The notes under the pieces: generated by a model
The model's database searches: none
What the model was told of the DNA's origin: nothing
The model's input: only the letters and a program-made list of their open reading frames with translations
Position numbers and translations under genes: made by a program
Shown: one piece after another, positions 1,501 through 18,762 of the stretch
Position numbering within the stretch: position 1 is the stretch's first letter
Layout of the letters: the number at the start of each line of letters is the position of its first letter
Origin: Candidatus Bathyarchaeia archaeon
GTDB lineage: Archaea; Thermoproteota; Bathyarchaeia; Bathyarchaeales; Bathycorpusculaceae
Length of the DNA: 19,163 nt
Assembly (NCBI GenBank): GCA_050010515.1
Contig: JBEKKX010000041.1
Span: forward strand, 1 to 19,163
Direction of reading: 5' to 3'

Positions 1501-1746
1501 ATGATGATAGATTTGTCGGAAAAAGTAAAAGTTGGCATGCGCGGACAGGTAGTTATTCCAAAAAGACTTCGTAAGAAATTCAATATTGAAAATGGAATCA
1601 TAATAGAGATCAACGAAACAGAAGAGGGCTTGCTTTTAAAACCTTTTAATCCAGTAGCTGAGCTGAAGGGGCTTGGGAAAGGCGTCTTCGGAGACCCAGT
1701 CAAATACCAGAAAAAAATGCGCGAAGAATGGGATTGCCCGCAATGA
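1501..1746 (+). CDS. vapB: AbrB/MazE/SpoVT-family antitoxin
   Basis: KVGMRGQVVIPKRLRKKFNI AbrB signature; ATGA overlap with the downstream PIN gene. Confidence 0.92.
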   Translation: MMIDLSEKVKVGMRGQVVIPKRLRKKFNIENGIIIEINETEEGLLLKPFNPVAELKGLGKGVFGDPVKYQKKMREEWDCPQ

Positions 1747-2156
1747 AAATAGCCTTAGATACAAATGTCCTTATTTACTTTCTAGAGGGTATAGAACCCC
1801 AAGCCAGTAAAGTAGAAAAAATCTTAAACTTGTTCATGAAAGCACAAGATGAAGGAATTATCTCTACAATAGCGGTTGCTGAGGTCCTAACTGGATTCTA
1901 CATGGCAAGAGAGGAAAAAAAAGTCGCTGAGGCAAAAAAACTGTTAAACGATTTGACTCTTAACAGTTTTAAGATAGTTCCAGTTACATTTGAAATTGCT
2001 GATTTAGCCGCTAATCTGCGTGCTAAGAGGGGCGGAAGACTGCCTGATGCTTTAATTGTGGCCACAGCACTCAACCAAGCAGCTAACATTGTTTATTCTC
2101 AGGATAAGGACCTTCAACGTTTCAATAAGGACATCAAAATTTGTGAATTATCATGA
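1743..2156 (+). CDS. vapC: PIN-domain VapC toxin (about 137 aa)
   Basis: PIN acidic motifs IALDTNVLIY, STIAVAEV, LPDALIVATA and YSQDKD. The ATG at 1743 overlaps the antitoxin stop. Confidence 0.94.
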   Translation: MKIALDTNVLIYFLEGIEPQASKVEKILNLFMKAQDEGIISTIAVAEVLTGFYMAREEKKVAEAKKLLNDLTLNSFKIVPVTFEIADLAANLRAKRGGRLPDALIVATALNQAANIVYSQDKDLQRFNKDIKICELS

Positions 2157-2216
2157 ATAATATGACCATTCACGTAGAAATTTCTGGAAAAAACAGTAAA
2201 AAAATTGAGGCTGGAA

Positions 2217-2268
2217 AAATTCACTTGCTAAATTGATACCCTCTCCCGCCTTCCTAATTTTGGATAAT
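2217..2268 (+). repeat. Direct repeat B, copy 2
   Basis: 49/52 identical to 1358-1409. Confidence 0.93.
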
Positions 2269-2308
2269 TTATTTATCAACAACTTTGTCCTGCTATGAAA
2301 CCGAATGG

Positions 2309-2353
2309 TTTATTTTTTACTACAGGGTCTGTAGTACTACAGAGTGTGTAGTA
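2309..2353 (+). promoter_or_regulatory. TATA-like element followed by two overlapping palindromic operator-like sites, TACTACA-N5-TGTAGTA
   Basis: Units at 2318-2336 and 2335-2353 (17-bp period) lie between TTTATT (2309) and the ATG at 2355. Confidence 0.7.
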
Positions 2354-2354
2354 A

Positions 2355-3431
2355 ATGCTGTTTGACTTAGCCCCAAAAGACTCGCCAGAAGCCCTTTTTG
2401 GAAGAGAAAAAGAAATCGACGAACTCGTCCGCTTCATCGAAGCAGGAAGGTGGGTAACTGTGCTTGGGCCACGAATGGTAGGAAAAACCAGCCTCATAAA
2501 AGCAACCCGTGCCTGCCTCAACCGCCAAACCGTTTACGTCAACTTATGGGGTGCAACTGGCGTTCAGGGGCTCCTCAACGCGTTAGTGCAAAGTGTCAAC
2601 TCCTCTATGACTCTGTCTCAAAAAATCAAGGAAGCAGCCTCAAGAATAGAAGGATTAACGGTTGGCCCCAGCGGTTTATCAGTAACCATCCCTCGAAGGC
2701 CATTAACCACGCTTTGGAATCTGCTTGATGTTTTGGGCAGGCAAGACGAGAACTTGGTCATTGAGCTAGATGAAGTGCAGGAGTTGTCCTATGTCTCTGG
2801 TCAGTTACTAAAGGTTCTTGCAAACATATTCAATACGCATTCCCATGTCGTTTTTGTGTTTACTGGGTCAATGTTTGGCCTTATTCGAACGCTGCTCAAT
2901 CCAGAATCTTCTAGGAGCCCCATGTTTGGTCGTCCGCCTGCGGAGCTTTATCTGCAGAGATTTGACAAAACTCAGGTTGCAGAGTTCCTCAAACAAGGCT
3001 TCAAAGAATATAACATGAAACCGCCTAGCAACTTGATAAGTCAAGAGGTTGAGTCGAAACTGGGCGGCACACCTGGCTGGCTTACTTTATATGGGAACAA
3101 CATTGCGGTTGGCAAACTCTCTCCTCAAGAAGCATTGCACAAAACAGTGGAGCAGGGTCTTAGGGTTGTGAGGGAGGAGCTTGAGCATTTTCTTGAAAGT
3201 AGAGACAGAAAACTTTACGTTACGGCTCTATCCGCAATGACTAATCCTGCCAGATGGAGTGATATTAAAGCCAGCGTCGAGGCGAGAAGGGGAACTCCCG
3301 TTTCTGACTCTACAATCCAAGTAGTATTGAAAAGCTTGGAGGACGGACTGCTCATAGACCACAAAGACAAAGTTTACCAAATAGCCGATACAATGCTGAG
3401 AACATTATTGCTGAGCGGTTCAGCGACTTAA
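2355..3431 (+). CDS. Archaeal P-loop ATPase (COG1672/ATPase_2 type) with a probable C-terminal winged helix
   Basis: LFGREKE, Walker A GPRMVGKTS, Walker B LVIELDEVQ, VFTGS and GGTPGWL; C-terminal RWSDIK...LKSLEDGLLI. Confidence 0.9.
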   Translation: MLFDLAPKDSPEALFGREKEIDELVRFIEAGRWVTVLGPRMVGKTSLIKATRACLNRQTVYVNLWGATGVQGLLNALVQSVNSSMTLSQKIKEAASRIEGLTVGPSGLSVTIPRRPLTTLWNLLDVLGRQDENLVIELDEVQELSYVSGQLLKVLANIFNTHSHVVFVFTGSMFGLIRTLLNPESSRSPMFGRPPAELYLQRFDKTQVAEFLKQGFKEYNMKPPSNLISQEVESKLGGTPGWLTLYGNNIAVGKLSPQEALHKTVEQGLRVVREELEHFLESRDRKLYVTALSAMTNPARWSDIKASVEARRGTPVSDSTIQVVLKSLEDGLLIDHKDKVYQIADTMLRTLLLSGSAT

Positions 3432-3466
3432 ACTAAACCCTTATGCAAGCGATTTGTGCGTGCACA

Positions 3467-3537
3467 AGCCTACCCCTAGTCTACTAGATGCTTCTAATAT
3501 GCCCCAAATATGATTCAACATAGATGTGCATAGAATT
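3467..3537 (+). repeat. Direct repeat D, copy 1 (about 71 bp); overlaps the 3' end of hepT
   Basis: AGCCTACCCCTAGTCTACTAGATGCTTCTAATA...CCAAATATGATTCAACATAG...TGCAT.GAATT versus 4510-4581: 6 substitutions and 1 indel. Confidence 0.93.
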
Positions 3538-3826
3538 GAGCTTTTACAGCTTTCCACAGTACCTGCAGGTTTACGCCGAAGTATTCATGGATGAGTTTAT
3601 CGCGAGTGCCCGCCATCATTTTCCAAGGGATTTGAGGATACTTATCTTTGGTTTCCAGAGGGATACGCTTTGTTGCTTCACCGATAATCTCAAAGTTTCT
3701 AACTATTGCATCAACCGTTTTACTATCTTCCGAAAACTGCTCAAAACTGAGTCCTTCAACATAGTTTTCTATCTTTTCTATGGCATCAGCGATATCGTCG
3801 AGATATAGACGAGAGTCCCTTTTCAA
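3515..3826 (-). CDS. hepT: HepT-like HEPN (DUF86) RNase toxin, with the C-terminus apparently replaced by repeat sequence
   Basis: [15 protein letters not shown] and [19 protein letters not shown] (R-X4-H motif); overlaps the MNT stop. Confidence 0.9.
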
Positions 3827-4122
3827 ACGTAAATTGCCTCGTTTAATATACTATCTTTTATCCTAGGCTTAAGAGCATCTCGCATAACCAAATCAACCTT
3901 AACACCAAGCTGCTGGCTCAGAAAATCTTCAAGCTCAACAAACCTGAAAAGGCTTATCGGTTCATAAAAATCAACCAAAATATCAAGATCACTCGTATCC
4001 TTCTGCTCTCCTCTAACATACGATCCAAAAAGACCAATACTTTTCACTTTGAACTTTTCTTCAATTTCGGGCTTCAACAATTCTAATCTGTTTTTAAGCG
4101 AATCAAAATTCAAAGGAGTCAT
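3823..4122 (-). CDS. mntA: Minimal nucleotidyltransferase antitoxin
   Basis: [20 protein letters not shown] and KVDLV motifs. Start is uncertain (4122 or 4146). Confidence 0.92.
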
Positions 4123-4328
4123 GAGCAGAAATATGCAGTTGGTCATATTTAGTTTTTTTGAGTAGTTCGGTTGTGAATCAATTGGTTTTTGTTGAACAGG
4201 GCTTGTTTTGACTCTTCTTAACCGTCACGCATGTAAATTGCTACTAGTTACGCATATTATAGCAATACGCCAACGAAGCACCAAATATTAGGATCAGCTT
4301 ATTAGCTTTTATGCTAGCGCAATCAGTT

Positions 4329-4351
4329 GTAAATAGTAGCCTCTCTCCTCT
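4329..4351 (+). repeat. Dispersed repeat A, copy 2
   Basis: Matches 1314-1338. Confidence 0.75.
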
Positions 4352-4410
4352 CTGTGAAAGTGTTGTTTTGGGTTGCTTTTTTGGTTCAGGGTTTAAATTG
4401 GTTGCAGGTT

Positions 4411-4470
4411 GAGGCTAGAAAAGGTTTGAAAAGGTGCAAAAAGGCTAAAAAAGGTAAAAAAAGGTTATCG
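4411..4470 (+). repeat. Six degenerate 10-bp tandem units (phased A-tracts, RAGGnnnnAA)
   Basis: GAGGCTAGAA AAGGTTTGAA AAGGTGCAAA AAGGCTAAAA AAGGTAAAAA AAGGTTATCG. Confidence 0.75.
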
Positions 4471-4509
4471 CCAACATAACCTAACCAGACTCCCGTTTGT
4501 GTGCGCTAC

Positions 4510-4581
4510 AGCCTACCCCCTAGTCTACTAGATGCTTCTAATAGGCTCCAAATATGATTCAACATAGCGTTGCATGGAATT
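4510..4581 (+). repeat. Direct repeat D, copy 2
   Basis: Matches 3467-3537. Confidence 0.93.
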
Positions 4582-4744
4582 AAGGCGCGCACTTTTGCAT
4601 GCAGAACAGTGCTTTTTCATGTACAAGAAGAAGCTTTACATAAACAAAACAATACAAAACCGAACAGATTGGCAATTTTTTCTTCCATATGGTAAGAATT
4701 CTTTCCAATTCTACCCCTCAAAACTTTATAGCTGTTAAGCTCAA

Positions 4745-4960
4745 ATGGCCTGGCCACATGCAACAAAAGAGGTGAAAACCATCAAAGAACTTACCCCACT
4801 TAAACAAGCTTTAAGGGAACTGGCAGCACTTGGCGAAGAAGAACACGAAGGACCACTCATAGACCTCGCGGTGCTATTATCAAAAATTGTCCGAACATCC
4901 GAACACAAAGGCATCCACTACACACTAGAAAAATACGCACCAGAATTAATCAAAATCTAA
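4745..4960 (+). CDS. Small hypothetical helical protein
   Basis: 71-aa ORF with protein-like composition and TTTATA upstream (about 4725). An internal GAGGTGA at 4769 makes the start uncertain. Confidence 0.5.
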   Translation: MAWPHATKEVKTIKELTPLKQALRELAALGEEEHEGPLIDLAVLLSKIVRTSEHKGIHYTLEKYAPELIKI

Positions 4961-5161
4961 CAAGCTTAAAAGTTACTATCACTTTATCAAGCACTTATTT
5001 TCAAATCACCAGACAAGGAATTGCACAAAGGTAGATTTTGATTAACTTTCTTACCAAATAATTCTAAACTATTAACAACTGCTTCTTAGTTAAAACGTCA
5101 AATAGCAGAATTATACGATTAAATTTATAGCCAAGAAAACAGCATAGCACAACTGGTCGTT

Positions 5162-6511
5162 ATGGTTACAAAGACGCTCAAGAAGAAAGAAGTTGAATTA
5201 GGGTTCGTTCACATACCCGTCAAAAACAGAGCGGAACTTTTGGGAGAGTTGGTGGCGCCCTTTGAAACCAAACTTAATGATTCGCCTGCTAAATTTGACA
5301 AATATGGACGCTTATGGTCATATTATCTTAAGCGAAGATTTCCCACCGGTACCCAAATTACGATTAGTAAGAATGATGGTGGTCTCGAAATTTCAGCAAT
5401 AGAAAAACAAGAAGGAAATACGGCTTTACAGATGACAGCACCTATAGAAACGGTTTCTACAAACATATTATTGCCTGAAAACGTCATATCTCATCAAGTG
5501 CTTGAAAAACGTTCGACTGAGCCTATTGCTGAAGGTGCCAACACTCTTCCGTCACAGGAAATTACAAACATAGACCGAGTTAAACCATACTTCCATGCTA
5601 ATTCTGTATTAATTTTTAATGAAAATGTAACTACTACAGAAGCTGTAGAAAAGAACAGTATTGATCTTATTGTTACATCCCCACCCTACAACGTCGATAT
5701 AAAGTACAACAGCCATGATGACAAAATCTCTTACGAAGATTACTTAGAGTTTAGTAGAAAATGGATGTCGCGTTGTTTCGAATGGCTGAAAGAAGATGGT
5801 CGTTTCTGTTTAAACATTCCCCTAGACAAAAATAAGAACGGTCAACAAAGTGTAGGAGCGGATTTGACAACTATAGCTAAGAAAATAGGCTTCAAATATC
5901 ACTCAACAATAGTTTGGAATGAAGGCAACATCTCTAGAAGAACCGCTTGGGGTTCATGGATGCGTGCTTCAGCCCCGTTTGTGATTGCACCGGTTGAATT
6001 AATTGTGATTCTCTATAAAGAGACGTGGAAAAAGACTAGTGGCAGTAAGGTTTCAGATATTAGTAGAGATGATTTCATGAATTGGACTAATGGTCTTTGG
6101 ACTTTCCAAGGAGAAAGTAAAAAACGAACCGGGCATCCTGCGCCTTTCCCGATTGAACTTCCTCATCGGTGCATTAAACTGTTCAGTTTTGTTAATGATT
6201 TGGTTTTAGACCCATTTTTAGGTAGCGGAACTACGTTGGTTGCTTCAGTTTTAGACAATCGAAGAGGTATAGGTATCGACGTAGATTTGGAATATTGCGA
6301 GTTAGCTAAGAAACGCTTAATTAAAGAAGCACATATACTCGATACTGTTCTTGCTACAGTAGGCGAATCTCATGAAGCTGAGAGACAGCGAGGAGCCAAA
6401 AAAGAAACTATTAACAGCACTCAAGGAACAGAGAGAACTAAGACGCAAAGAGGAAAGCGTGAAGTCTCAGCTAGACTTGATAATGGAATACTTCAAGAAA
6501 AATCCCGGTAG
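5162..6511 (+). CDS. Beta-class N4C/N6A DNA methyltransferase with an N-terminal extension of about 140 aa
   Basis: Catalytic motif IV DLIVTSPPY precedes HPAPFP and motif I VLDPFLGSGTT. Confidence 0.95.
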   Translation: MVTKTLKKKEVELGFVHIPVKNRAELLGELVAPFETKLNDSPAKFDKYGRLWSYYLKRRFPTGTQITISKNDGGLEISAIEKQEGNTALQMTAPIETVSTNILLPENVISHQVLEKRSTEPIAEGANTLPSQEITNIDRVKPYFHANSVLIFNENVTTTEAVEKNSIDLIVTSPPYNVDIKYNSHDDKISYEDYLEFSRKWMSRCFEWLKEDGRFCLNIPLDKNKNGQQSVGADLTTIAKKIGFKYHSTIVWNEGNISRRTAWGSWMRASAPFVIAPVELIVILYKETWKKTSGSKVSDISRDDFMNWTNGLWTFQGESKKRTGHPAPFPIELPHRCIKLFSFVNDLVLDPFLGSGTTLVASVLDNRRGIGIDVDLEYCELAKKRLIKEAHILDTVLATVGESHEAERQRGAKKETINSTQGTERTKTQRGKREVSARLDNGILQEKSR

Positions 6512-7034
6512 AGACATAAAACACCCTGAGATTGTTGACTGGGTTGTAGCAGAATGGAATAAGCGAACAGGTAAAGTTTTCAGAGACCCAGATAGAGGAA
6601 TTAGAAGGTTATCGCAAGATGGTTTGCTTATCAAGGTTGCAAAGGGAGTTTATCGGTATGAACCTGATTTTGTTGTTAAAAGAGACTTAGAAGATTTTAC
6701 TCCAGCGCAAAAAGAAGCTATTATGAAAAGAGATAATTACCGATGTGTTGTTTGTGGTCGGAGTGTTGCTAACGGTGTAGAATTACAGGTTGACCACATA
6801 AAGCCAAAAGACCAAGGTGGTAAAGCAACAATAGAAAATGGGGAAACCTTGTGTGCTCAGCACAATTTTCTTAAGAAAAACTACAAACAAACAGAATCAG
6901 GTAAACGGTTTTTCATACGTCTATATGAAATGGCAAAAGCCAACAAGGATAAACCACTTCAAGATTTCTGCACCCAAATCCTTGATGTTTACGAAAAAAA
7001 TAATGTTAACAGTCACATAGTTTGGGAAAGATAA
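6459..7034 (+). CDS. HNH endonuclease, probably the cognate type II restriction enzyme
   Basis: RDNYRCVVCG, LQVDHIKP and GKATIENGETLCAQHN. The GTG at 6459 follows GAGGA and is preferred; the ORF is open from 6372. Confidence 0.88.
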   Translation: MKSQLDLIMEYFKKNPGRDIKHPEIVDWVVAEWNKRTGKVFRDPDRGIRRLSQDGLLIKVAKGVYRYEPDFVVKRDLEDFTPAQKEAIMKRDNYRCVVCGRSVANGVELQVDHIKPKDQGGKATIENGETLCAQHNFLKKNYKQTESGKRFFIRLYEMAKANKDKPLQDFCTQILDVYEKNNVNSHIVWER

Positions 7035-7190
7035 AAGAACAAAAAAGAAGTAAACACGGTTGAAAAAGAGTGGCTTATTCCAAAAGAAACTTGGCGATAG
7101 CCAATAGCTAAAAAAACAGTTCAACGTACGTAATCCTTTCAACATTGCTTATTTTTATATACCAATTCATACAACAAGCTTGCGATTGAT

Positions 7191-8249
7191 ATGGGTGCTT
7201 TCATCTGCCAAGTATCAAAGATGGATTGGTTAGTAAGTCGTAGAATCGGTGTTTACGGGAACCGAGAAGGAACCGACACAGATGGAATAGTACAATACTT
7301 TAACAAAAGTAAGCATGGAACGCAAACAATTCAATCAATAATTGAAGATTTAATCGGAATGAAAAAAGGAGACATAGTATTTTTTCATGTCCTTGAAGAG
7401 CAAGCAGAAAGTACATTACACGGCGTTTATAGAGTGAGAGAAGAGCCTTTTTACAACGATAAACTGGGAATATGGAAATCGAGTGCTAGCCTGGTGTATC
7501 CATATAGGTTCTGTTTTGAGCCTCATCCTGATTATACGGAGCTTTGTAAACATGATGTAAGCATCCCCGTTAGTGAATTCTACCGTTCTGTTGAGCAAAG
7601 AAAAGTCATCTCAGTTTTAACATTGGAACGTGAAGTAAGAGGAGCTGCGCATGCAGTTAAGAAAATTACAGAAAATGATGGCGTTGAAATTACCAGATTA
7701 TTGTATAGGAAGCAAGATATGCTACCATCAAATGAACTGATAGAGTTTCATCCCGTGCAAATGGCCATGTCTCCCCTAAGAAACTATATTGAGAAAATTG
7801 GCTCAATCGAATTTTCGATCAAGGCATTATTGGCTTATGAACTTGGAAGAAAAAACCCTGGCATAGTAAAATTCTTTCCAGCTTGTAGAAGTCTTAAATT
7901 TGATGTTTTAATCGAGGCATTCATCGGTCAAACCATGCGAAGACCTATCGATCTTATGTGTATTTCAGCCAACAAAGATGTGATTGTTACAACCATCGAA
8001 GCAAAAACAGACCAATCGGATATTTATGACCTAGTTCAAACCCTTGAATATCAGGACATTTTCAAGCTTAGAAACACTGACAAAGGAGCACTAAATTTTA
8101 ATTTTTCGATCTGCCTTTTGGCAAAAAGATTCTCTCCAAAATTAATTGAATACGTAACGATTAGAAACCTTATTCTACTGTGGGAAGAAATTATTCTTCT
8201 TAGGTATGATCCTTCATTAGATGGCAAAAGTGCCAATTTCTTTCTATAA
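7191..8249 (+). CDS. EVE/PUA-like domain fused to a PD-(D/E)XK (NucS-like) nuclease; candidate modification-dependent nuclease
   Basis: N-terminal MKKGDIVFFH, LHGVYRV and YPYRF; C-terminal IDLMC, IEAK and QTLEY. Confidence 0.7.
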   Translation: MGAFICQVSKMDWLVSRRIGVYGNREGTDTDGIVQYFNKSKHGTQTIQSIIEDLIGMKKGDIVFFHVLEEQAESTLHGVYRVREEPFYNDKLGIWKSSASLVYPYRFCFEPHPDYTELCKHDVSIPVSEFYRSVEQRKVISVLTLEREVRGAAHAVKKITENDGVEITRLLYRKQDMLPSNELIEFHPVQMAMSPLRNYIEKIGSIEFSIKALLAYELGRKNPGIVKFFPACRSLKFDVLIEAFIGQTMRRPIDLMCISANKDVIVTTIEAKTDQSDIYDLVQTLEYQDIFKLRNTDKGALNFNFSICLLAKRFSPKLIEYVTIRNLILLWEEIILLRYDPSLDGKSANFFL

Positions 8250-8264
8250 CAAACAGTTTCTGAA

Positions 8265-8687
8265 ATGCCTCCAGAGTTTCCAAATTACAAAGTTATTAGT
8301 TCAAATGAAATTGATAAAATAAAAAATAACGCTAATTCCTATAGACTTTTTAGAAATGCGCCTGATAATATTAAACTAAAACTAATTTCCAACCAAAACA
8401 ACTTAATGGTAATACGCAAGATCTCTGAATACAATAGCCTTCAATTAGGCGATATCTTGATTTATCAAATTCATGGAAAATGCTCAATTAAGCAGTTCAG
8501 CAACTTTATGAAATTGGTAAAGGAGCATGCAGATAGCTGTTATAACGGCGATCTTATGAGTGTAGAGCCGTTAATAATTGCTGAATCGTATGAAAATATC
8601 ATAAGCTTCTTTGTTGATAATTACAACAAGTTTGAAACAATTGCCCAACGAGTTCCCATAATTATGTATACTCTAGCGCCAAAATAA
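8265..8687 (+). CDS. Hypothetical protein in frame with the upstream nuclease; possibly its severed C-terminal domain
   Basis: Same frame as 7191-8249, separated only by TAA and the codons QTVSE. Confidence 0.6.
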   Translation: MPPEFPNYKVISSNEIDKIKNNANSYRLFRNAPDNIKLKLISNQNNLMVIRKISEYNSLQLGDILIYQIHGKCSIKQFSNFMKLVKEHADSCYNGDLMSVEPLIIAESYENIISFFVDNYNKFETIAQRVPIIMYTLAPK

Positions 8688-8733: not shown

Positions 8734-8827
8734 GTAGTAACTTTTATTTGTGTAAAGTTTTATGTGTTGGTGTAATCTGGGCGTCTTTGGGATGCCTCGA
8801 TATCTCCCCAGTAGAGCAACTGCCTTG
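8734..8827 (+). pseudogene. Decayed copy of the tRNA-Thr promoter region plus tRNA 5' half, ending in the anticodon
   Basis: Aligns to 9632-9728 (GTAGTAACTTTTATTTG...TATGTGTTGGTGTAATCTGGGCGTCTTTG...GCCTCGATA...CCCAGTAGAGC..CTGCCTTG). Confidence 0.9.
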
Positions 8828-8901
8828 AGGGGGTTAAATAGACAATTTAGTTTAAACAAGTTTTATCAGAATAATCAAGCCAGCAATATGACAGATAGAG
8901 G

Positions 8902-9246
8902 TTGAAAGGGGAGGTCAGGGTGAAGGTTCTTTCTTGTAGGAGTCATTTGGATTGTAATCGGGAATATTGGTGGTATAATCTTATTAGCCCTGAAAATTGG
9001 CTGGAAAGAGAGCCTTTTTTAACTTTAATTTTAAATGGCAAGGATGCTAATGAGAGGGTTGGCTCAATTGTCATACCGCTGAACGGTGAGTGGCGTGAGC
9101 GTATTCTTAAGGCGCCATCTGGTTCTTTAAAGGGAATGAAAGCCATAAAGGCGCATGTCTACAAGGTAAGGCAAAGCGGTGAATATTGGATTTATTTTGG
9201 GAAAGTAAGCGACGGAGTTTACCCTGTTAAGCTCCAAGAAGAGTGA
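8902..9246 (+). CDS. Hypothetical protein
   Basis: 114-aa ORF; alternative GTG start at 8920 after GGGGAGGT; no recognised motif. Confidence 0.6.
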   Translation: MKGEVRVKVLSCRSHLDCNREYWWYNLISPENWLEREPFLTLILNGKDANERVGSIVIPLNGEWRERILKAPSGSLKGMKAIKAHVYKVRQSGEYWIYFGKVSDGVYPVKLQEE

Positions 9247-9261
9247 CATAAGCACGGGAAT

Positions 9262-9486
9262 TTATTTTTTATGTTCGGCTATATATTTCTCAATCCAAAC
9301 CCAATCAGGATTTCCATGATTGAAAAAAGTTGAGAAGTTATCCTTTAACCATTCATAATAATCATCTTCAGTAAACTGGCAAAATGCTTCAACAAGTTCC
9401 TTCTTCCTAATAGATTTAGGAATCGGCGAATCGGTTTCCTTTAGCCCTTCCATAACAAATTCTTCCACTACTTTTCTATCTAACAA
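9262..9486 (-). CDS. Hypothetical protein
   Basis: 74-aa ORF with a TTG start preceded by AGGAGG. Confidence 0.7.
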   Translation of the reverse strand: MLDRKVVEEFVMEGLKETDSPIPKSIRKKELVEAFCQFTEDDYYEWLKDNFSTFFNHGNPDWVWIEKYIAEHKK

Positions 9487-9692
9487 GAGCGTTTCCTCCT
9501 AAAGCCTCTTATAACTTGCATCTTCTATGTGCTCCGGTCCCCGGATGAATGCGTTCTTAATAAACTTCGTCAGCGCGTTGTCCTGAATTATCGAGCTAAC
9601 AAAGCCTATAAGAGAAAAGTAAAAGCATTTGGTAGTAACTTTTATTTGGGTAGGTTTTTATGTGTTGGTGTAATCTGGGCGTCTTTGAGGGT

Positions 9693-9766
9693 GCCTCGAT
9701 AGCTCAGCCCAGTAGAGCGGCTGCCTTGTAAGCAGCAGGCCGCGGGAGCAAGGCCCGCCCGAGGCT
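9693..9766 (+). tRNA. tRNA-Thr(TGT) with non-canonical D and T loops
   Basis: Cloverleaf: acceptor GCCTCGA/CCGAGGC (A7-C66 mismatch), D stem GCTC/GAGC, anticodon stem GCTGC/GCAGC with loop CTTGTAA (TGT at 9727-9729), T stem GCGGG/CCCGC, discriminator T, no encoded CCA. Confidence 0.88.
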
Positions 9767-9776
9767 CCTCTAAATT

Positions 9777-10049
9777 TTATTCTTCGGGTGGTTCTGGTTC
9801 GTCTTTGCTTGCAGAGGGGTTTTTGCCTGTGAGTTTGTATTTGCGGGCTTGTGTTTCTATGATTTCGTGTTCGAAGAGTTTGCGCAATGATTTGAAGACT
9901 TTTTTGGAGGGTTCGCCTGTTTTGTCGGTTAGTTCTTGGAGGGTTAATTCTTTTCCTTCAGTCTTTAAGGTTTGATAGACTTTTTCGTCGGTTTTGTTAA
10001 GTTTCACTTTGACCACTGCCTTACGCTGTTTCTCTGTCTTATGGCACAC
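9777..10049 (-). CDS. Small winged-helix HTH protein
   Basis: KVYQTLK, LTLQELTDKTG and VFKSLRKLFEHEII; the true start is probably an internal GTG. Confidence 0.7.
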   Translation of the reverse strand: MCHKTEKQRKAVVKVKLNKTDEKVYQTLKTEGKELTLQELTDKTGEPSKKVFKSLRKLFEHEIIETQARKYKLTGKNPSASKDEPEPPEE

Positions 10050-10310
10050 ATGGCTTTTTCAATTTTGCGGTTTAACACCGAAAATAAACATCAAACGTTA
10101 GGAAACATGATTTTTTAAAAACCAAAACTTTCAGCAATTAAATCCTGATCTCTCAACTCTGAAAGCAATCTTGAGTTGATTCTAACAAACGAAGTTTCTG
10201 TTACTTCTTCGGTGGACTCTCCCATTCCGTGTGGTTGTTACCTTTCGGTTGATAAGAAAACCTTCTATAGCAACTTGGCTTGTGAAGGTTATTAGACATT
10301 AAACCAATCA

Positions 10311-10397
10311 TTAAATTAACAACCAAAGCAAAAATCCGAAGACTATGCCAACACCAAGCATTCCGAGCCACATCTTGGCAGAACTATAATCAGACAT
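10311..10397 (-). CDS. 28-aa single-TM microprotein MSDYSSAKMWLGMLGVGIVFGFLLWLLI (not in the ORF track)
   Basis: Strong SD GGGGTGA (10404-10410 on the minus strand) 6 nt before the ATG; about 20 hydrophobic residues. Confidence 0.6.
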   Translation of the reverse strand: MSDYSSAKMWLGMLGVGIVFGFLLWLLI

Positions 10398-10667
10398 CTT
10401 CTATCACCCCGTACTAACGTCGGATGCGTCCATATACCCACAATTTCAACTCAAAATTTAAAGTGTATTTCGGGCGCACGAATATGTCGAAAATTGAAAC
10501 AGCATAACCCTGTTACAGGCGGGAGGCTAAATTACCTTTTTTCCAGGCAGTTTAAAATAATAAGTCAGCCTATCTTTTTCTCTCTGCTTGCGTTTTGAAC
10601 GCAGTGTACGAAAAGAAACACCTAAGCTGAACAGACGAAGAAGTAACAGTGCCCAAATGAGTGATAG

Positions 10668-10880
10668 TTAGGAGGTGTCTCCGCCTTTTCTCCAGCTATC
10701 TGGGTTTTTATATTCTGCTTTGGGGCCTTCCTGCCAGATTGTGTCGTAGACCTTTTGGAATTCTTGGCTGGAGAGTCTTTTGTGCTCTTGGATTTTAGCC
10801 ATCGCTCGAAGCGTTTCATCATCAGGTTTATTCCCCTTTTTAGAACGCTTTAGCGTTTTAAGTAATCTATTTTTGGACAT
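10668..10880 (-). CDS. Small basic hypothetical protein
   Basis: 70-aa ORF overlapping the stop of the upstream ORF. Confidence 0.55.
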   Translation of the reverse strand: MSKNRLLKTLKRSKKGNKPDDETLRAMAKIQEHKRLSSQEFQKVYDTIWQEGPKAEYKNPDSWRKGGDTS

Positions 10881-11037
10881 TTTTTCGCCCCAGAAAAGTT
10901 TGAGCTTTTTGCATGTTTGCTTTTTTAAGCATGCATTTTGGCATTGGAATATCAGCGCCGTAAGATTTTTCGAGTGCCCTTCTGCATTTTTCAGCCATTT
11001 TCCTATCGTGATTTTTGGAGAATTTTTGGTTTATCAT
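10867..11037 (-). CDS. Small basic hypothetical protein (about 56 aa)
   Basis: ATG at 11037 preceded by GAGGAAAGGA; the ORF is open from 11097. Confidence 0.45.
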   Translation of the reverse strand: MINQKFSKNHDRKMAEKCRRALEKSYGADIPMPKCMLKKANMQKAQTFLGRKNVQK

Positions 11038-11525
11038 TTCCTTTCCTCGCAGCCTTTGAATACACTGGGGAAACTGAAAATAAAAGTAATGTTTCAATCC
11101 TAAGCATATGTTAAAAAAAGAAATATTGTTGGAATTGCTGCTTTCTCTCCCGAGAATATATCGGCACTGGACGGTTGCACTATAGTTAAGTTCTTTGTCT
11201 GTTAAGTTTTAGCTATTGTGATGGTTTGTGGTTCTGTATTTCGACTTCATAAGAGCTATTATCGGAGTTAACTGTTGCATAATGTGACTGGTCATACAAC
11301 GGTCCAAACTTGACCTTTACGTTGCCGTTCTTAATGCCGTAATATATCGGGTGTACTGAATCTATTCCGAATATTTCTATATTTTAACGTTAGATCTCTT
11401 TTTTCTGGATGAGCCCTCTTTTTGCTCCCTAAATGACCATGCAAATAGTATACCCGTTTGGTCAATTCTACAGAATATTGCGCTATCCTGCCGGATAAGC
11501 CATTTGGGCATGTTGAAAATCAATC

Positions 11526-11741
11526 TTACTCTTTGGAAGCATCATCCGCTTTAGCGTTAAACGCATGCTTCTTCTCAGGCGAAACTTTCAATCCATGATA
11601 TTCATAAAGAATTCTTAGCGCGTCTCGGATGGCTTCGTTGCGGCTGTTATAGACGCCTTTTTCGATTAACATGTTTAACAAGTCAAGATACCTCTTCGTA
11701 AGACGAATCGTGATGCGCTCTCTCTTGTTGCCATTAGACAC
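11526..11741 (-). CDS. Ribbon-helix-helix (CopG/Arc) transcriptional regulator
   Basis: ERITIRL beta strand and LIEKGVYNSRNEAIRDALR. Confidence 0.88.
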   Translation of the reverse strand: MSNGNKRERITIRLTKRYLDLLNMLIEKGVYNSRNEAIRDALRILYEYHGLKVSPEKKHAFNAKADDASKE

Positions 11742-11917
11742 CTTTATGTCACCATTTAGACGCTTTCTAAGTGATGTAATGCACGAAACTTGTCCATATA
11801 AGTTCTTGGCAGATAAACATTCGCCTTCTGTCTGCCAAAAATAGCCTGAAAAGTCAGGAACTTCCTGCTAGTCAAAAGCCGAAACAAAATCAACAAAAAT
11901 AAGCCTAAATTGTTCGG

Positions 11918-12541
11918 CTAACCAACAGCACGCTGCCCCAACAGCACACGAAACCCGCTTTCTCTTGCAAGAACCGTACAGTTCCCAAAGGTTTCGTTAA
12001 AAAGACAAGGCAGCGTTTTAGCGCCGATTTTAGACCGAATAACCATCTGGAACGTGGCTTTATCCGCCATGGCTTTTGCGGCTTCTTTCACTATGGCTTT
12101 CACCGTTTCCATACCTGCACTAACAGGCGGATTCGAAAGCACACAATTAAACACTAAACCTTTCACGGGCTCATACAAGTAACCATAGCGCACCTCAGCA
12201 TTAGGCACCTTGTTTAATTCAACATTCCTTTTTGCTAAGCGCACCGCTCTCATGTTCACATCAGTCATAATCACGCTAAGCTTTGAATTAAGAGCGGCTG
12301 CAACTATTCCGACAGCACCATAACCGCAGCCAATGTCAAGAACGCAGCCATCTTTCGGCAGAACCATCGATTCGATTAAAAGCCTAGTGCCTGGATCAAC
12401 TCGTCTCTTCGAAAAAACGCTTGAAGCAGTCAAAAACTCGAAGCCCTTCCCGCACAGGACGGTTCGAACTAAACCGAACCTCTCCTTTGACTTGGGTTCA
12501 GCGACAAAATAATGGTCTGTGCTATGGGTGTCCTGATTCAT
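11918..12541 (-). CDS. Class I SAM-dependent methyltransferase, RsmC/MTS family
   Basis: VFSKRRVDPGTRLL, VLDIGCGYG and SNPP. Confidence 0.9.
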   Translation of the reverse strand: MNQDTHSTDHYFVAEPKSKERFGLVRTVLCGKGFEFLTASSVFSKRRVDPGTRLLIESMVLPKDGCVLDIGCGYGAVGIVAAALNSKLSVIMTDVNMRAVRLAKRNVELNKVPNAEVRYGYLYEPVKGLVFNCVLSNPPVSAGMETVKAIVKEAAKAMADKATFQMVIRSKIGAKTLPCLFNETFGNCTVLARESGFRVLLGQRAVG

Positions 12542-13547
12542 GTTCGCTCCCGCTTTTCCAAACCTTCGGATAAGTGCCCCTCAGCATCAACACTCTCTCT
12601 AGAGCAGCAACAGCACCATGCCTCAAAGTCAACAATTCCTCAGCTGAAACAAGCGCTCTCGCCAACGCAACTGCCTCACCCTTCAACGTGAAAATACCCA
12701 AAATCGAACCTTTCTCAATGCCGTTTGCAACCTGCAATACGCCTGGAGCAGTCAAGTTTGCACCATGGCACAGCGCATCAACAGCCGAGTCACGAACCAC
12801 AATTTTCGGAAGCAAAGATAACGCCTCTTCCATAGGTACAATAAATTTGTGAAGGATCGCCTCGTCTTTTTTCTGCTCCCACTCACCAAACCAGTATGCA
12901 ACATCATGCAACGTAACTTTCGAAGCGCTGTTTTCGGTGAAGGGTCCCGAGCGTGTCCTGCGCAGCTCCTGCATGTGGGCGCCGACACCTATGATTTCGC
13001 CGATGTCAAAGCAGAGTTTGCGTATGTACGTTCCAGCCTCGCAGCCAACTTTGAAGAGAACATTACGCCCATCAGTTTCCAAATAGTCAATGTAGTAAAT
13101 GCGCCTAGTTCTAAGCTGCCGCTTAACAGAAGAACGCAAAGGTGGACGCTGATAAATTTCATCCTCAAACTCCAAAAGAACCGGCTTAATCTGTTCTTCC
13201 TTAGCGTCACCATGAAGCTTCATCACGCAAACGTATTCTTTGCCGCTGTAGAGAAACGCCTGAACCACCTTCGTAGCGTCCTCTAAGGTGATGGGTAAAA
13301 CGCCGGTCACTTTGGGGTCTAAAGTACCTCCATGTCCGATATTGGCTAGGTGCATGATTTTTTTTACCCACGCAGCAACTTCGTGGCTTGTTGGACCAGC
13401 TGGCTTGTCGAGGTTTATTGTGCCGTACTGAATGTACTCTTTGGCTGGTCTTTCAGAGGGTACATGCCCATACTTTGGGTTGGTTGTGTCCTCTGCTTTC
13501 GTCAACAGTTCACGTTTGATTTCCCATGGAGGGATTGTTCTAGGCAT
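12522..13547 (-). CDS. cbf5: H/ACA RNA-guided pseudouridine synthase Cbf5
   Basis: LDKPAGPTSHEV, GHGGTLDPKVTG, YQRPPLRSSVKR, CEAGTYIR, ELRRTRSG and a PUA domain. Confidence 0.97.
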   Translation of the reverse strand: MPRTIPPWEIKRELLTKAEDTTNPKYGHVPSERPAKEYIQYGTINLDKPAGPTSHEVAAWVKKIMHLANIGHGGTLDPKVTGVLPITLEDATKVVQAFLYSGKEYVCVMKLHGDAKEEQIKPVLLEFEDEIYQRPPLRSSVKRQLRTRRIYYIDYLETDGRNVLFKVGCEAGTYIRKLCFDIGEIIGVGAHMQELRRTRSGPFTENSASKVTLHDVAYWFGEWEQKKDEAILHKFIVPMEEALSLLPKIVVRDSAVDALCHGANLTAPGVLQVANGIEKGSILGIFTLKGEAVALARALVSAEELLTLRHGAVAALERVLMLRGTYPKVWKSGSEHESGHP

Positions 13548-14480: not shown

Positions 14481-14942
14481 TTACGTTTCTTGGCAAAACT
14501 CTTTGGGAGTCATTACTTTGCCTTTGAGGTTAGGTAGCCTCTCAAAATGTTCTTTGTTTTCGGTCAGCAGTACATCGCAACACTGCAAAAGAAAAGAGGC
14601 GGCGATTGCTACATCTTGGTATTCTATCGGTTGCCCCTTCGAGATTAGATATGCATTTAGTTCAGCAACAAGCTTAGCAGCCTCACCGTTTAATGAAACC
14701 CAGCGGAATTGACCAAGCACCTTTTCTGCTTTCTTTAAGGCAGTTTTGTAATCTTTTCTTAAATATGATCCTGTCAATATTTCCGAAACGCTTACCGTGC
14801 TGATAAATGCACTATTGGTGCTGGTTAATCGTTTGCACAGTTCTATTACGTCTTCTTTTCCTCTATCCACGTCGACAATTATTGAGGTATCAACGAATAC
14901 AGTTTTGAGTTCGCTTGTAGGTTTCTTCTTTTTCTCAGGCAA
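14481..14942 (-). CDS. vapC: PIN-domain VapC toxin
   Basis: VFVDTSII, STVSVSEI, YQDVAIAAS and LTENKEHF; probable TTG start just after the antitoxin stop. Confidence 0.92.
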   Translation of the reverse strand: MPEKKKKPTSELKTVFVDTSIIVDVDRGKEDVIELCKRLTSTNSAFISTVSVSEILTGSYLRKDYKTALKKAEKVLGQFRWVSLNGEAAKLVAELNAYLISKGQPIEYQDVAIAASFLLQCCDVLLTENKEHFERLPNLKGKVMTPKEFCQET

Positions 14943-14943
14943 T

Positions 14944-15195
14944 TCAAGGAACCAGCCCAAGGCGTTTGAATCTGTTTCTTGAATCGGCGCGTAAAGTTGT
15001 TAGCAGCTTTTCGAAGTCCACGGGTAAAAAGTCAGTGCAATCTTTCCACGCTTCTTCGTTTGCTTTTTCAATCACTATCTTGTTGCCTTCCACTACTCTC
15101 ATCTTCAGTCTATCTCCTTCCGTTATACCCACTTCTTCACGTATTTCTTTGGGTATTGTGACTTGTGAATGCCTTGTAACCGTGACTGAAGCCAT
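14944..15195 (-). CDS. vapB: AbrB-family antitoxin
   Basis: VTRHSQVTIPKEIREEVGITEGD. Confidence 0.92.
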   Translation of the reverse strand: MASVTVTRHSQVTIPKEIREEVGITEGDRLKMRVVEGNKIVIEKANEEAWKDCTDFLPVDFEKLLTTLRADSRNRFKRLGLVP

Positions 15196-18363: not shown

Positions 18364-18762
18364 TTAGATCCAGCTTTTTTTTGTTTCCTGTATTGCGTCA
18401 AAGTGGGGGTCGTCTGACAGAATGGTTGCTTGGTTGGCTATGGCTGTTGCAGCAATTATGCAGTCGCCCATAGGTGTATTTCGGTATTTGCTTCTGAGCA
18501 GGCCTGCTTGTTTGGCTATTGGTGAAGTTAGGCTTTGGATCTTCAGTCCGCTTTGGGTTAAATTCGCATAGCAGATTTCTGCTTCTTCTTTTCCGATTTT
18601 TTCGCAAATCGTTTGAATAGTTTCGCTGATAACGATTGTCGGCAGTATGCCTTCTTTGCGCTGGATAAGGTCTTTTAACTTTTTTGTAGCTTTTTGCTTG
18701 GTTTCAGTTTTGTCTGAATAGAAATATTCCATGATGAATCGGCTGTCAAGCACCATTTTCAA
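18364..18762 (-). CDS. vapC: PIN-domain VapC toxin
   Basis: MVLDS, PTIVISE, MGDCIIAATA and LSDDPHF. Confidence 0.92.
   Translation of the reverse strand: MKMVLDSRFIMEYFYSDKTETKQKATKKLKDLIQRKEGILPTIVISETIQTICEKIGKEEAEICYANLTQSGLKIQSLTSPIAKQAGLLRSKYRNTPMGDCIIAATAIANQATILSDDPHFDAIQETKKSWI

Follow-up and report, generated by a model that had tools for sequence, protein, structure and literature searches.

A sole tRNA-Thr(UGU) with an alternative A18/G55 elbow, probably an ordinary translational tRNA, in a Bathyarchaeia species of peat or wetland

In the canonical tRNA elbow, G18 is inserted between bases 57 and 58 and bonded to Ψ55. According to one review, elongator tRNAs combine this G18-Ψ55 contact with the G19-C56 pair, a reverse Hoogsteen U54-A58 pair and a stacked purine at position 57 (R57), with U55 conserved and U54 universally conserved except in eukaryotic initiators, which present a purine-purine A54-A58 pair (PMC7912444). 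Moreover, G18, U55 and C56 are termed conserved or invariant in cytoplasmic tRNAs in two reviews (PMC7912444, PMC6337575). The T-loops of FMN and cobalamin riboswitches follow the consensus YGNRA, whose second position is G, and receive an intercalating base that is adenosine in 99.96% of the sequences, tRNA departing from these riboswitch loops by a U at position 2 (10.1101/2022.12.26.521914). In staphylococci, non-proteinogenic tRNA-Gly species with altered conserved D-loop and T-loop letters are described as extra isoacceptors found beside the proteinogenic ones (PMC4574755, PMC12256121). In a literature search whose coverage left subscription journals largely outside, no description of natural tRNAs combining A18 with G55 was found.

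The gene reported here occupies 9693..9766 (+ strand; tRNA positions 1-73) of a 19,163-nucleotide stretch of contig C41, hereafter the window, from a Bathyarchaeia genome (G000) of 2.38 Mb in 66 contigs, with 42.6% G+C and rated 98.5% complete; the stretch is also present in peat and wetland metagenomes. The single tRNA call of ARAGORN in the window was tRNA-Thr(tgt) at 9693-9768, with the anticodon TGT, which decodes ACA, at 9727..9729 (+), and Rfam RF00005 matched 9693-9766 over its full length (1-71) with 51 bits (gathering score of 29; E 1.6e-8). By reading of the sequence, A7 was placed at 9699, U8 at 9700, A14 at 9706 and G15 at 9707, followed by the D loop AGCCCAGUA, in which 9711..9712 (+; D loop AGCCCAGTA) correspond to A18 (9711), in place of the near-universal G18, and to a retained G19 (9712). 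Further downstream lie C48 (9741), C66 (9759), U73 (9766) and, by sequence and Rfam alignment alike, the T loop AGCAAGG (9747..9753, +), composed of A54 (9747), G55 (9748), C56 (9749), A57, A58 (9751) and G59/G60 (9752-9753). The D, anticodon and T stems were entirely Watson-Crick, U8-A14 and G15-C48 were present, and the 7-66 pair was the sole non-standard one flagged in the Rfam alignment. This base-by-base reading agreed with the preliminary description of the gene, which had pointed out A18 and the A54-G55 of the T loop, the perfect D, anticodon and T stems, the conservation of G19/C56, G15/C48, U8/A14 and A58, and an A7-C66 mismatch, which is real.

G1-C72, C2-G71 and U73, which we take to be the identity elements of archaeal ThrRS, were found in this tRNA and in both other Thr tRNAs of the genome. 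The minimum free energy fold was a cloverleaf of -30 kcal/mol, with a z-score of -0.62 that is uninformative at such high GC. C74-C75 were encoded at 9767..9768 (+), the next base being T, so that A76 is absent from the gene; many relatives encode the full CCA. Upstream, the region 9634..9692 (+) carries the A/T-rich boxes TTTTATTT (9640-9647) and TTTTTATG (9655-9662), and would resemble the promoter of an archaeal tRNA gene. The marks of a tRNA pseudogene, namely broken stems or loss in relatives, were not observed, the stems being intact except at 7-66 and the allele being kept in 119 of 332 family genomes.

Compared with the canonical elbow, this tRNA preserves the cloverleaf, a D loop of normal size, a seven-base T loop, G19-C56, A57, A58, G53-C61, U8-A14 and G15-C48. 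It departs from it by A18 and G55 instead of G18 and U55, by A54, which removes the U54-A58 pair, and by G60, in contrast to the pyrimidine given as conserved at position 60 of elongators (PMC7912444). The riboswitch loops resemble the Thr loop in having G at the second loop position (the counterpart of 55), a purine at the fourth (57) and A at the fifth (58), as well as in receiving an adenosine from the partner loop, for which A18 would be the equivalent by sequence position. The loop A-G-C-A-A therefore fits YGNRA at positions 2, 4 and 5, with A instead of Y at position 1, and the partner is a D loop with G19-C56 rather than a T-loop receptor. Since the riboswitch loops begin with a pyrimidine and this one with A54, the analogy is incomplete. 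With respect to A54 opposite A58 and to a purine at position 60, the tRNA resembles eukaryotic initiator tRNA-Met, which carries A60; it differs from it as an archaeal tRNA-Thr of the elongator class whose anticodon is UGU and whose first pair is G1-C72, whereas initiators keep G18 and U55. By analogy, the change in the elbow is best read as a compensated swap of the G18-Ψ55 contact to the A-G design of the riboswitch T-loops. In such an elbow, A18 would stack between A57 and A58, taking the place of G18, and would bond to G55, while G19-C56 would be retained and a purine-purine A54-A58 pair would close the T loop in place of U54-A58.

The preliminary description had interpreted the gene as a functional but specialised tRNA, such as a non-ribosomal Thr donor or a nuclease-evading variant. 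A specialised additional tRNA would presuppose a second, canonical Thr(UGU) gene that serves translation. The tRNA complement of the genome comprised 45 genes by ARAGORN and 42 Rfam matches, with a single Thr(UGU) in both. A regular expression for the Thr acceptor arm recovered just three Thr-type genes, with the anticodons CGU (contig C13), GGU (C37) and UGU (the window), and BLAST searches of G000 with the tRNA returned itself, the CGU and GGU genes, a partial copy located upstream and two short matches to Asn tRNAs. Hence, by ARAGORN, Rfam and the regular expression, this 98.5%-complete genome presented no second Thr(UGU), and the gene is the lineage's only Thr(UGU), which is one half of a condition that this description had itself set against its reading. 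In addition, ACA was the most used Thr codon of the genome, accounting for 32.6% of the Thr codons and 20.4 per 1000 codons over 413 ORFs with 400 or more codons. With a sole Thr(UGU) gene and ACA as the commonest Thr codon, a role as a specialised additional tRNA is unsupported. In contrast to the staphylococcal tRNA-Gly, there is no canonical duplicate in this genome, and the tRNA must therefore serve the ribosome. All this points with high probability to an ordinary, essential translational tRNA with an alternative elbow in a species of Bathyarchaeia from peat or wetland. Among contigs from metatranscriptome runs (four examined), one (X17, record 2) spanned 9691-9758 with no differences and another (X18, record 5) spanned 9632-9868 with eight differences; both extended into the flanks of the gene, so that they could represent DNA carry-over or precursor.

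A sole decoder of the commonest Thr codon would thus operate with neither partner of the G18-Ψ55 contact, although reviews call this contact invariant. Cbf5 is one of two archaeal Ψ55 enzymes, and the genome encodes both Cbf5 and Pus10 (239 bits). Despite the presence of these enzymes, A54 and G55 imply that the tRNA cannot bear Ψ55 or any U54-derived modification, which leaves the enzymes that modify positions 55 and 54 without a target on an essential tRNA.

The distribution of the A18/G55 allele was assessed in a census in which every genome searched represents one species. The exact pattern was present in 119 of the 332 genomes (70 genera) of the family, corresponding to 93 of the 120 genomes of the window's own genus (g1, G000 included) and to all 26 genomes of a second genus (g54), and it was found in none of the other 68 genera, bearing in mind that patterns of this exact kind keep the Thr anticodon arm and the T stem constant and could miss diverged Thr genes. 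The recurrence of the same allele, with intact stems, in so many species upheld two earlier claims, namely that the changes were not sequencing errors and that the gene was functional rather than decayed. A looser A18/G55 pattern, open to every tRNA whose D stem reads GCTC/GAGC and whose D loop has nine bases, was applied to a class sample of 251 genomes from 96 genera and hit 14 genomes, all belonging to g1 or g54, with all 22 matches in Thr tRNAs. When a degenerate Thr(UGU/CGU) pattern (up to two mismatches) was used in g1, 111 of 120 genomes were matched, with 209 matches, 150 of them listed. Most g1 genomes gave two pattern matches, which among the matches listed were as a rule a UGU gene and a CGU gene, and these two genes were frequently identical except at position 34. 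By a hand count among the matches listed, the UGU gene itself bore A18/G55 in roughly 76 of the 120 genomes of g1. In the 26 genomes of g54, 48 Thr(UGU/CGU) genes were recovered, 46 of them A18/G55, one G18/U55 (UGU) and one A18/U55 (CGU).

Within both genera the alternative to A18/G55 was G18/U55. It had been considered that orthologues in close relatives might carry the canonical GG and TTC; GG did occur in some relatives, but it was paired with ATC and not with TTC. These G18/U55 forms are alternative working alleles and do not mark the gene as a pseudogene, and both elbows coexist in the genome of the window, A18/G55 in the UGU gene and G18/U55 in the CGU gene. Some g1 genomes carried two identical A18/G55 Thr(UGU) genes, placed 3.1 kb apart in G053 (C106:1126-1182 and 4273-4329) and on two contigs (C15 and C16) in G095.

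A further survey by regular expression covered 80 loci linked to Cbf5, 25 of which presented such a Thr gene: 22 were A18/G55, three G18/U55 and none discordant. ARAGORN run in batch on the same 80 loci found tRNAs in 17, 11 of which were the Thr gene, and these counts were not used, the batch having missed the Thr gene in 14 of the 25 loci (L056, L058, L064, L079 and others). For example, the gene of L058 was missed in the batch, and the same DNA was called by ARAGORN in another run (as L016). Gene finders may thus under-call such low-scoring tRNAs. The score of the gene in the window was 51 bits by Rfam, against 55-70 for most tRNAs of the genome, and it serves as a warning that finders tuned to GG and TTC give low scores to genes of this kind.

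The earlier claim that both partners of the 18-55 contact had changed together was borne out across the two genera, in which A18 was matched with G55. The searches for G18/G55 and for A18 with a base other than G55 covered g1 and g54, the two genera with G55. G18/G55 was found in none of the 120 g1 genomes and in none of the 48 genes of the 26 g54 genomes, and A18 without G55 was found in five of the 120 g1 genomes (four U55 and one C55) and in one g54 gene, all six being CGU genes. In these searches, therefore, the UGU gene presented concordant states alone, and the discordant A18 forms were confined to the redundant CGU gene, whose loss the UGU tRNA might make up for in part by wobble. Moreover, the two alleles shared, among the matches listed, the same variants at positions 57-60 (AAGG, AAAG, GAGG and GAAG) and at positions 20-21 (TA and TG). 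The presence of the same flanking variants on both alleles indicates that nearby sites recombined or mutated anew without breaking the match between 18 and 55.

A maximum likelihood tree of Cbf5 (residues 90-341; 29 rows, L056 having been dropped by the filter) grouped the three loci with a G18/U55 UGU gene together, with a support of 86/70. This group was nested in a clade (98/97) whose other nine rows, the window included, were all A18/G55, and the 12-row sister of this clade was likewise all A18/G55. Provided that the root falls beyond these rows, to which both the midpoint root and the distant rows point, coordinated double changes must have occurred at least twice, a switch count taken from one gene (Cbf5) and a moderately supported branch (86/70). 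The pairing of A18 with G55 was also found in phage contigs, where a pattern with A18 and T54-G55 gave ten loci, nine of them called as tRNAs by ARAGORN (Pro, Thr, Phe, Ala and others). These phage tRNAs have T54, whereas the Thr tRNA has A54. The pattern with G18 and G55 gave seven phage loci, with three ARAGORN tRNAs that were all one identical tRNA-Phe, and the pattern with A18 and U55 gave 74 phage matches, 33 of which had an earlier GG in the D loop and consequently an ambiguous register. Because relatives are not independent, raw counts overstate the evidence for linkage; the flanking variants, the confinement of the discordant forms to CGU genes, the Cbf5 tree and the phage tRNAs nonetheless argue, at the level of sequence, that positions 18 and 55 interact epistatically.

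The swap would have taken place on an older background. A54 was present in every Thr(UGU/CGU) gene of g1 and g54 among the matches listed, with the reservation that the g1 patterns and the exact A18/G55 pattern required A54, and that the pattern for all Thr genes of g54 left position 54 free. A54-U55 was also found in Thr tRNAs from other families of the order (G040, G029 and G039), and U54-U55 in those of G030, G027, G036, G034 and G032. Judging from these genes, A54 appears older and wider than the swap at 18 and 55. A18/G55 may have arisen on this A54 background inside one clade of two genera, probably with A18/U55 in the redundant CGU isoacceptor as the intermediate step, and would then have spread between CGU and UGU genes, which often differ at position 34 alone. 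The coexistence in one genome of an A18/G55 UGU tRNA and a G18/U55 CGU tRNA implies that ThrRS, EF-1A, RNase P, the CCA enzyme and the ribosome accept both, and this acceptance argues that the swap may be structurally near-neutral. Under the reading of a compensated swap, the case would add an instance in a single essential isoacceptor of a free-living Bathyarchaeia (TACK) lineage, with A54 as its background. The two alleles and the likely A18/U55 intermediate still segregate among species of one genus, so that G18/U55, A18/U55 and A18/G55, with G18/G55 missing, make up a natural mutant cycle for the effects of 18-55 and Ψ55 on folding, charging and decoding.

Position 55 also varied elsewhere in these genomes. 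U54-C55-C56 was found together with a normal G18-G19 in four tRNAs of G000, namely Glu-UUC (C7:784-861), Thr-GGU (C37:5798-5874), Val-GAC (C21:11461-11537) and an intron-bearing gene (C10:19302-19400). C55 was likewise observed in the Gln(CUG) tRNA of a relative (L059:6928-7001) and, among the matches listed, in the Thr(CGU) tRNAs of G066, G072, G087 and G108, with the loop ACCGAAG. It seems that U55 is unusually dispensable in this lineage, or that C55 is edited.

These observations bear on how the linkage of 18 and 55 should be understood. Much of it could stem from very few events, since a 76-base gene recombines little, and the 18-55 contact itself may be under relaxed constraint, as G18/C55 occurs in several tRNAs and A18/U55 exists. 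A18 and G55 would then simply have travelled together from a single origin on a short, rarely recombining gene, an explanation consistent with the C55 of the four other tRNAs of the genome and of the four Thr(CGU) genes, the latter among the matches listed, with the existence of A18/U55 and A18/C55 genes, and with the frequent identity of UGU and CGU genes outside position 34, by which the allele would spread through anticodon change or gene conversion. We nevertheless consider it unlikely, because G18/G55 was absent from the 120 genomes of g1 and the 26 of g54, sites 20-21 and 57-60 occurred in all combinations on both alleles (among the matches listed), and discordant A18 was restricted to the redundant CGU gene; furthermore, the Cbf5 tree, if rooted outside, needs more than one coordinated switch, and the A18 and G55 pairing recurs in unrelated phage tRNAs. 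Less probable still is that the gene is a non-ribosomal Thr donor or a decaying pseudogene, as its non-canonical T loop, the A7-C66 mismatch, the incomplete CCA and the decayed partial copy about 900 bp upstream might suggest; this we regard as extremely improbable for the only UGU gene reading the commonest Thr codon, whose allele is kept with intact stems in the 119 family genomes and whose C66 is also found in a sister genome (L052) that encodes the full CCA.

Another alternative is a selected escape variant. This version holds that A18 and the A54/G55 T loop hide tRNA-Thr from something that reads the canonical elbow or U55, such as a toxin or viral tRNA nuclease or a modifying enzyme, and that the two alleles are maintained as a balanced polymorphism. 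Their coexistence across the 120 species of g1 and inside single genomes would agree with this, and there is circumstantial support in a window where toxin-antitoxin and restriction genes abound (three PIN genes, a HepT-nucleotidyltransferase pair and a DNA methylase with an HNH nuclease). This version is very unlikely, given that neither a nuclease directed at the elbow nor any other candidate factor was found and that the co-resident CGU tRNA keeps G18/U55, so that the pressure would have to be isoacceptor-specific; PIN and HepT toxins, moreover, are known to target the anticodon loop or the 3' end and are not known to target the elbow. It is quite unlikely, too, that G18/U55 and A18/G55 are two interchangeable stable states between which the clade repeatedly flips its essential tRNA, driven by an agent that reads the elbow or U55. 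If true, the polymorphism would be the trace of an arms race, the agent being, for example, a nuclease of viral or toxin origin or a checkpoint dependent on modification, and Ψ55 would be dispensable in vivo for an essential tRNA.

The mismatch in the acceptor stem of this probably translational tRNA has a separate history. It is due to C66 (9759..9759, +), in place of the T66 that gives A7-U66 in relatives, and metatranscriptome contigs of relatives also presented T at position 66. C66 was common only to L052, the sister of the window on the Cbf5 tree (96/97), and by this comparison it is a young, private change. Being common to L052 and the window, the mismatch has outlasted one or more splits and is clearly tolerated. 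An origin of C66 from an element inserted at the 3' end of the tRNA was considered and rejected: the gene immediately downstream, a small winged-helix (TrmB-like) gene at 9777..10049 (- strand; Pfam PF01978, E 4.6e-6), was syntenic and adjoined the tRNA at all 11 loci under comparison. The variable 1.8-kb segment (about 10092-11920) sits beyond this gene. This segment, with almost no long ORFs, lies between the winged-helix gene and a methyltransferase gene, is missing from L051 and is partial in L055, L057 and L124.

The decayed copy mentioned above had been placed at 8794-8827 in the preliminary description, with A7 and CCCAGTAG; the copy and both features are real, and it proved to be larger, extending over 8737..8827 (+) and including the upstream region. 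Aligned to 9634-9730, it comprises the upstream region, duplicated almost unchanged at 8737-8793, and tRNA positions 1-35, without the 3' half. It retains A7 and CCCAGTAG, with a two-base deletion in the D arm and AA for GG at positions 26-27. From its sequence, this copy is a true pseudogene, apparently a relic of a duplication or an insertion. Comparable copies of the 5' half were found in two other g1 genomes (G004:C16:2847-2887 and G019:C78:16414-16455). About 800 bp separate the copy from the tRNA (8828-9633), with two small ORFs of no family (8902-9246, +; 9262-9486, -), and the 8737-9633 segment was whole in L052 and present only in part in L051. The copy was also considered as an att site, a candidate that was discarded with about 800 bp between the repeats, two ORFs of no family and no integrase seen.

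The remaining genes of the window were assigned by Pfam and Rfam. Positions 1-355 of the window belong to the 3' end of an archaeal 23S rRNA gene (321 bits by Rfam). The region 1728-8687, upstream of the tRNA, is a defence or addiction island by Pfam. It holds genes for a PIN toxin (1728-2156) and for an archaeal ATPase (2355-3431), followed by a HepT/nucleotidyltransferase pair (3515-4146), by an N6/N4 DNA methylase (5162-6511) whose gene overlaps that of an HNH nuclease (6372-7034), and by two ORFs of no family. Two further PIN genes were found at 14481-14960 and 18364-18762. The Cbf5 pseudouridine synthase gene used as the tree marker is a syntenic neighbour of the tRNA at 12522..13547 (-), with the Pfam domains TruB_N, TruB_C_2, PUA and DKCLD. 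In four relatives (L052, at 3230-3255, L058, L064 and L119), cbf5 contained an insert of 24-25 bases with an AGGCTT..AAGCC hairpin within the conserved GGTLDP motif, which stops the frame after residue 78 and is absent from the window (13300-13320, -). A bulge-helix-bulge mRNA intron has reportedly been found in crenarchaeal cbf5, and the insert resembles an intron of this type.
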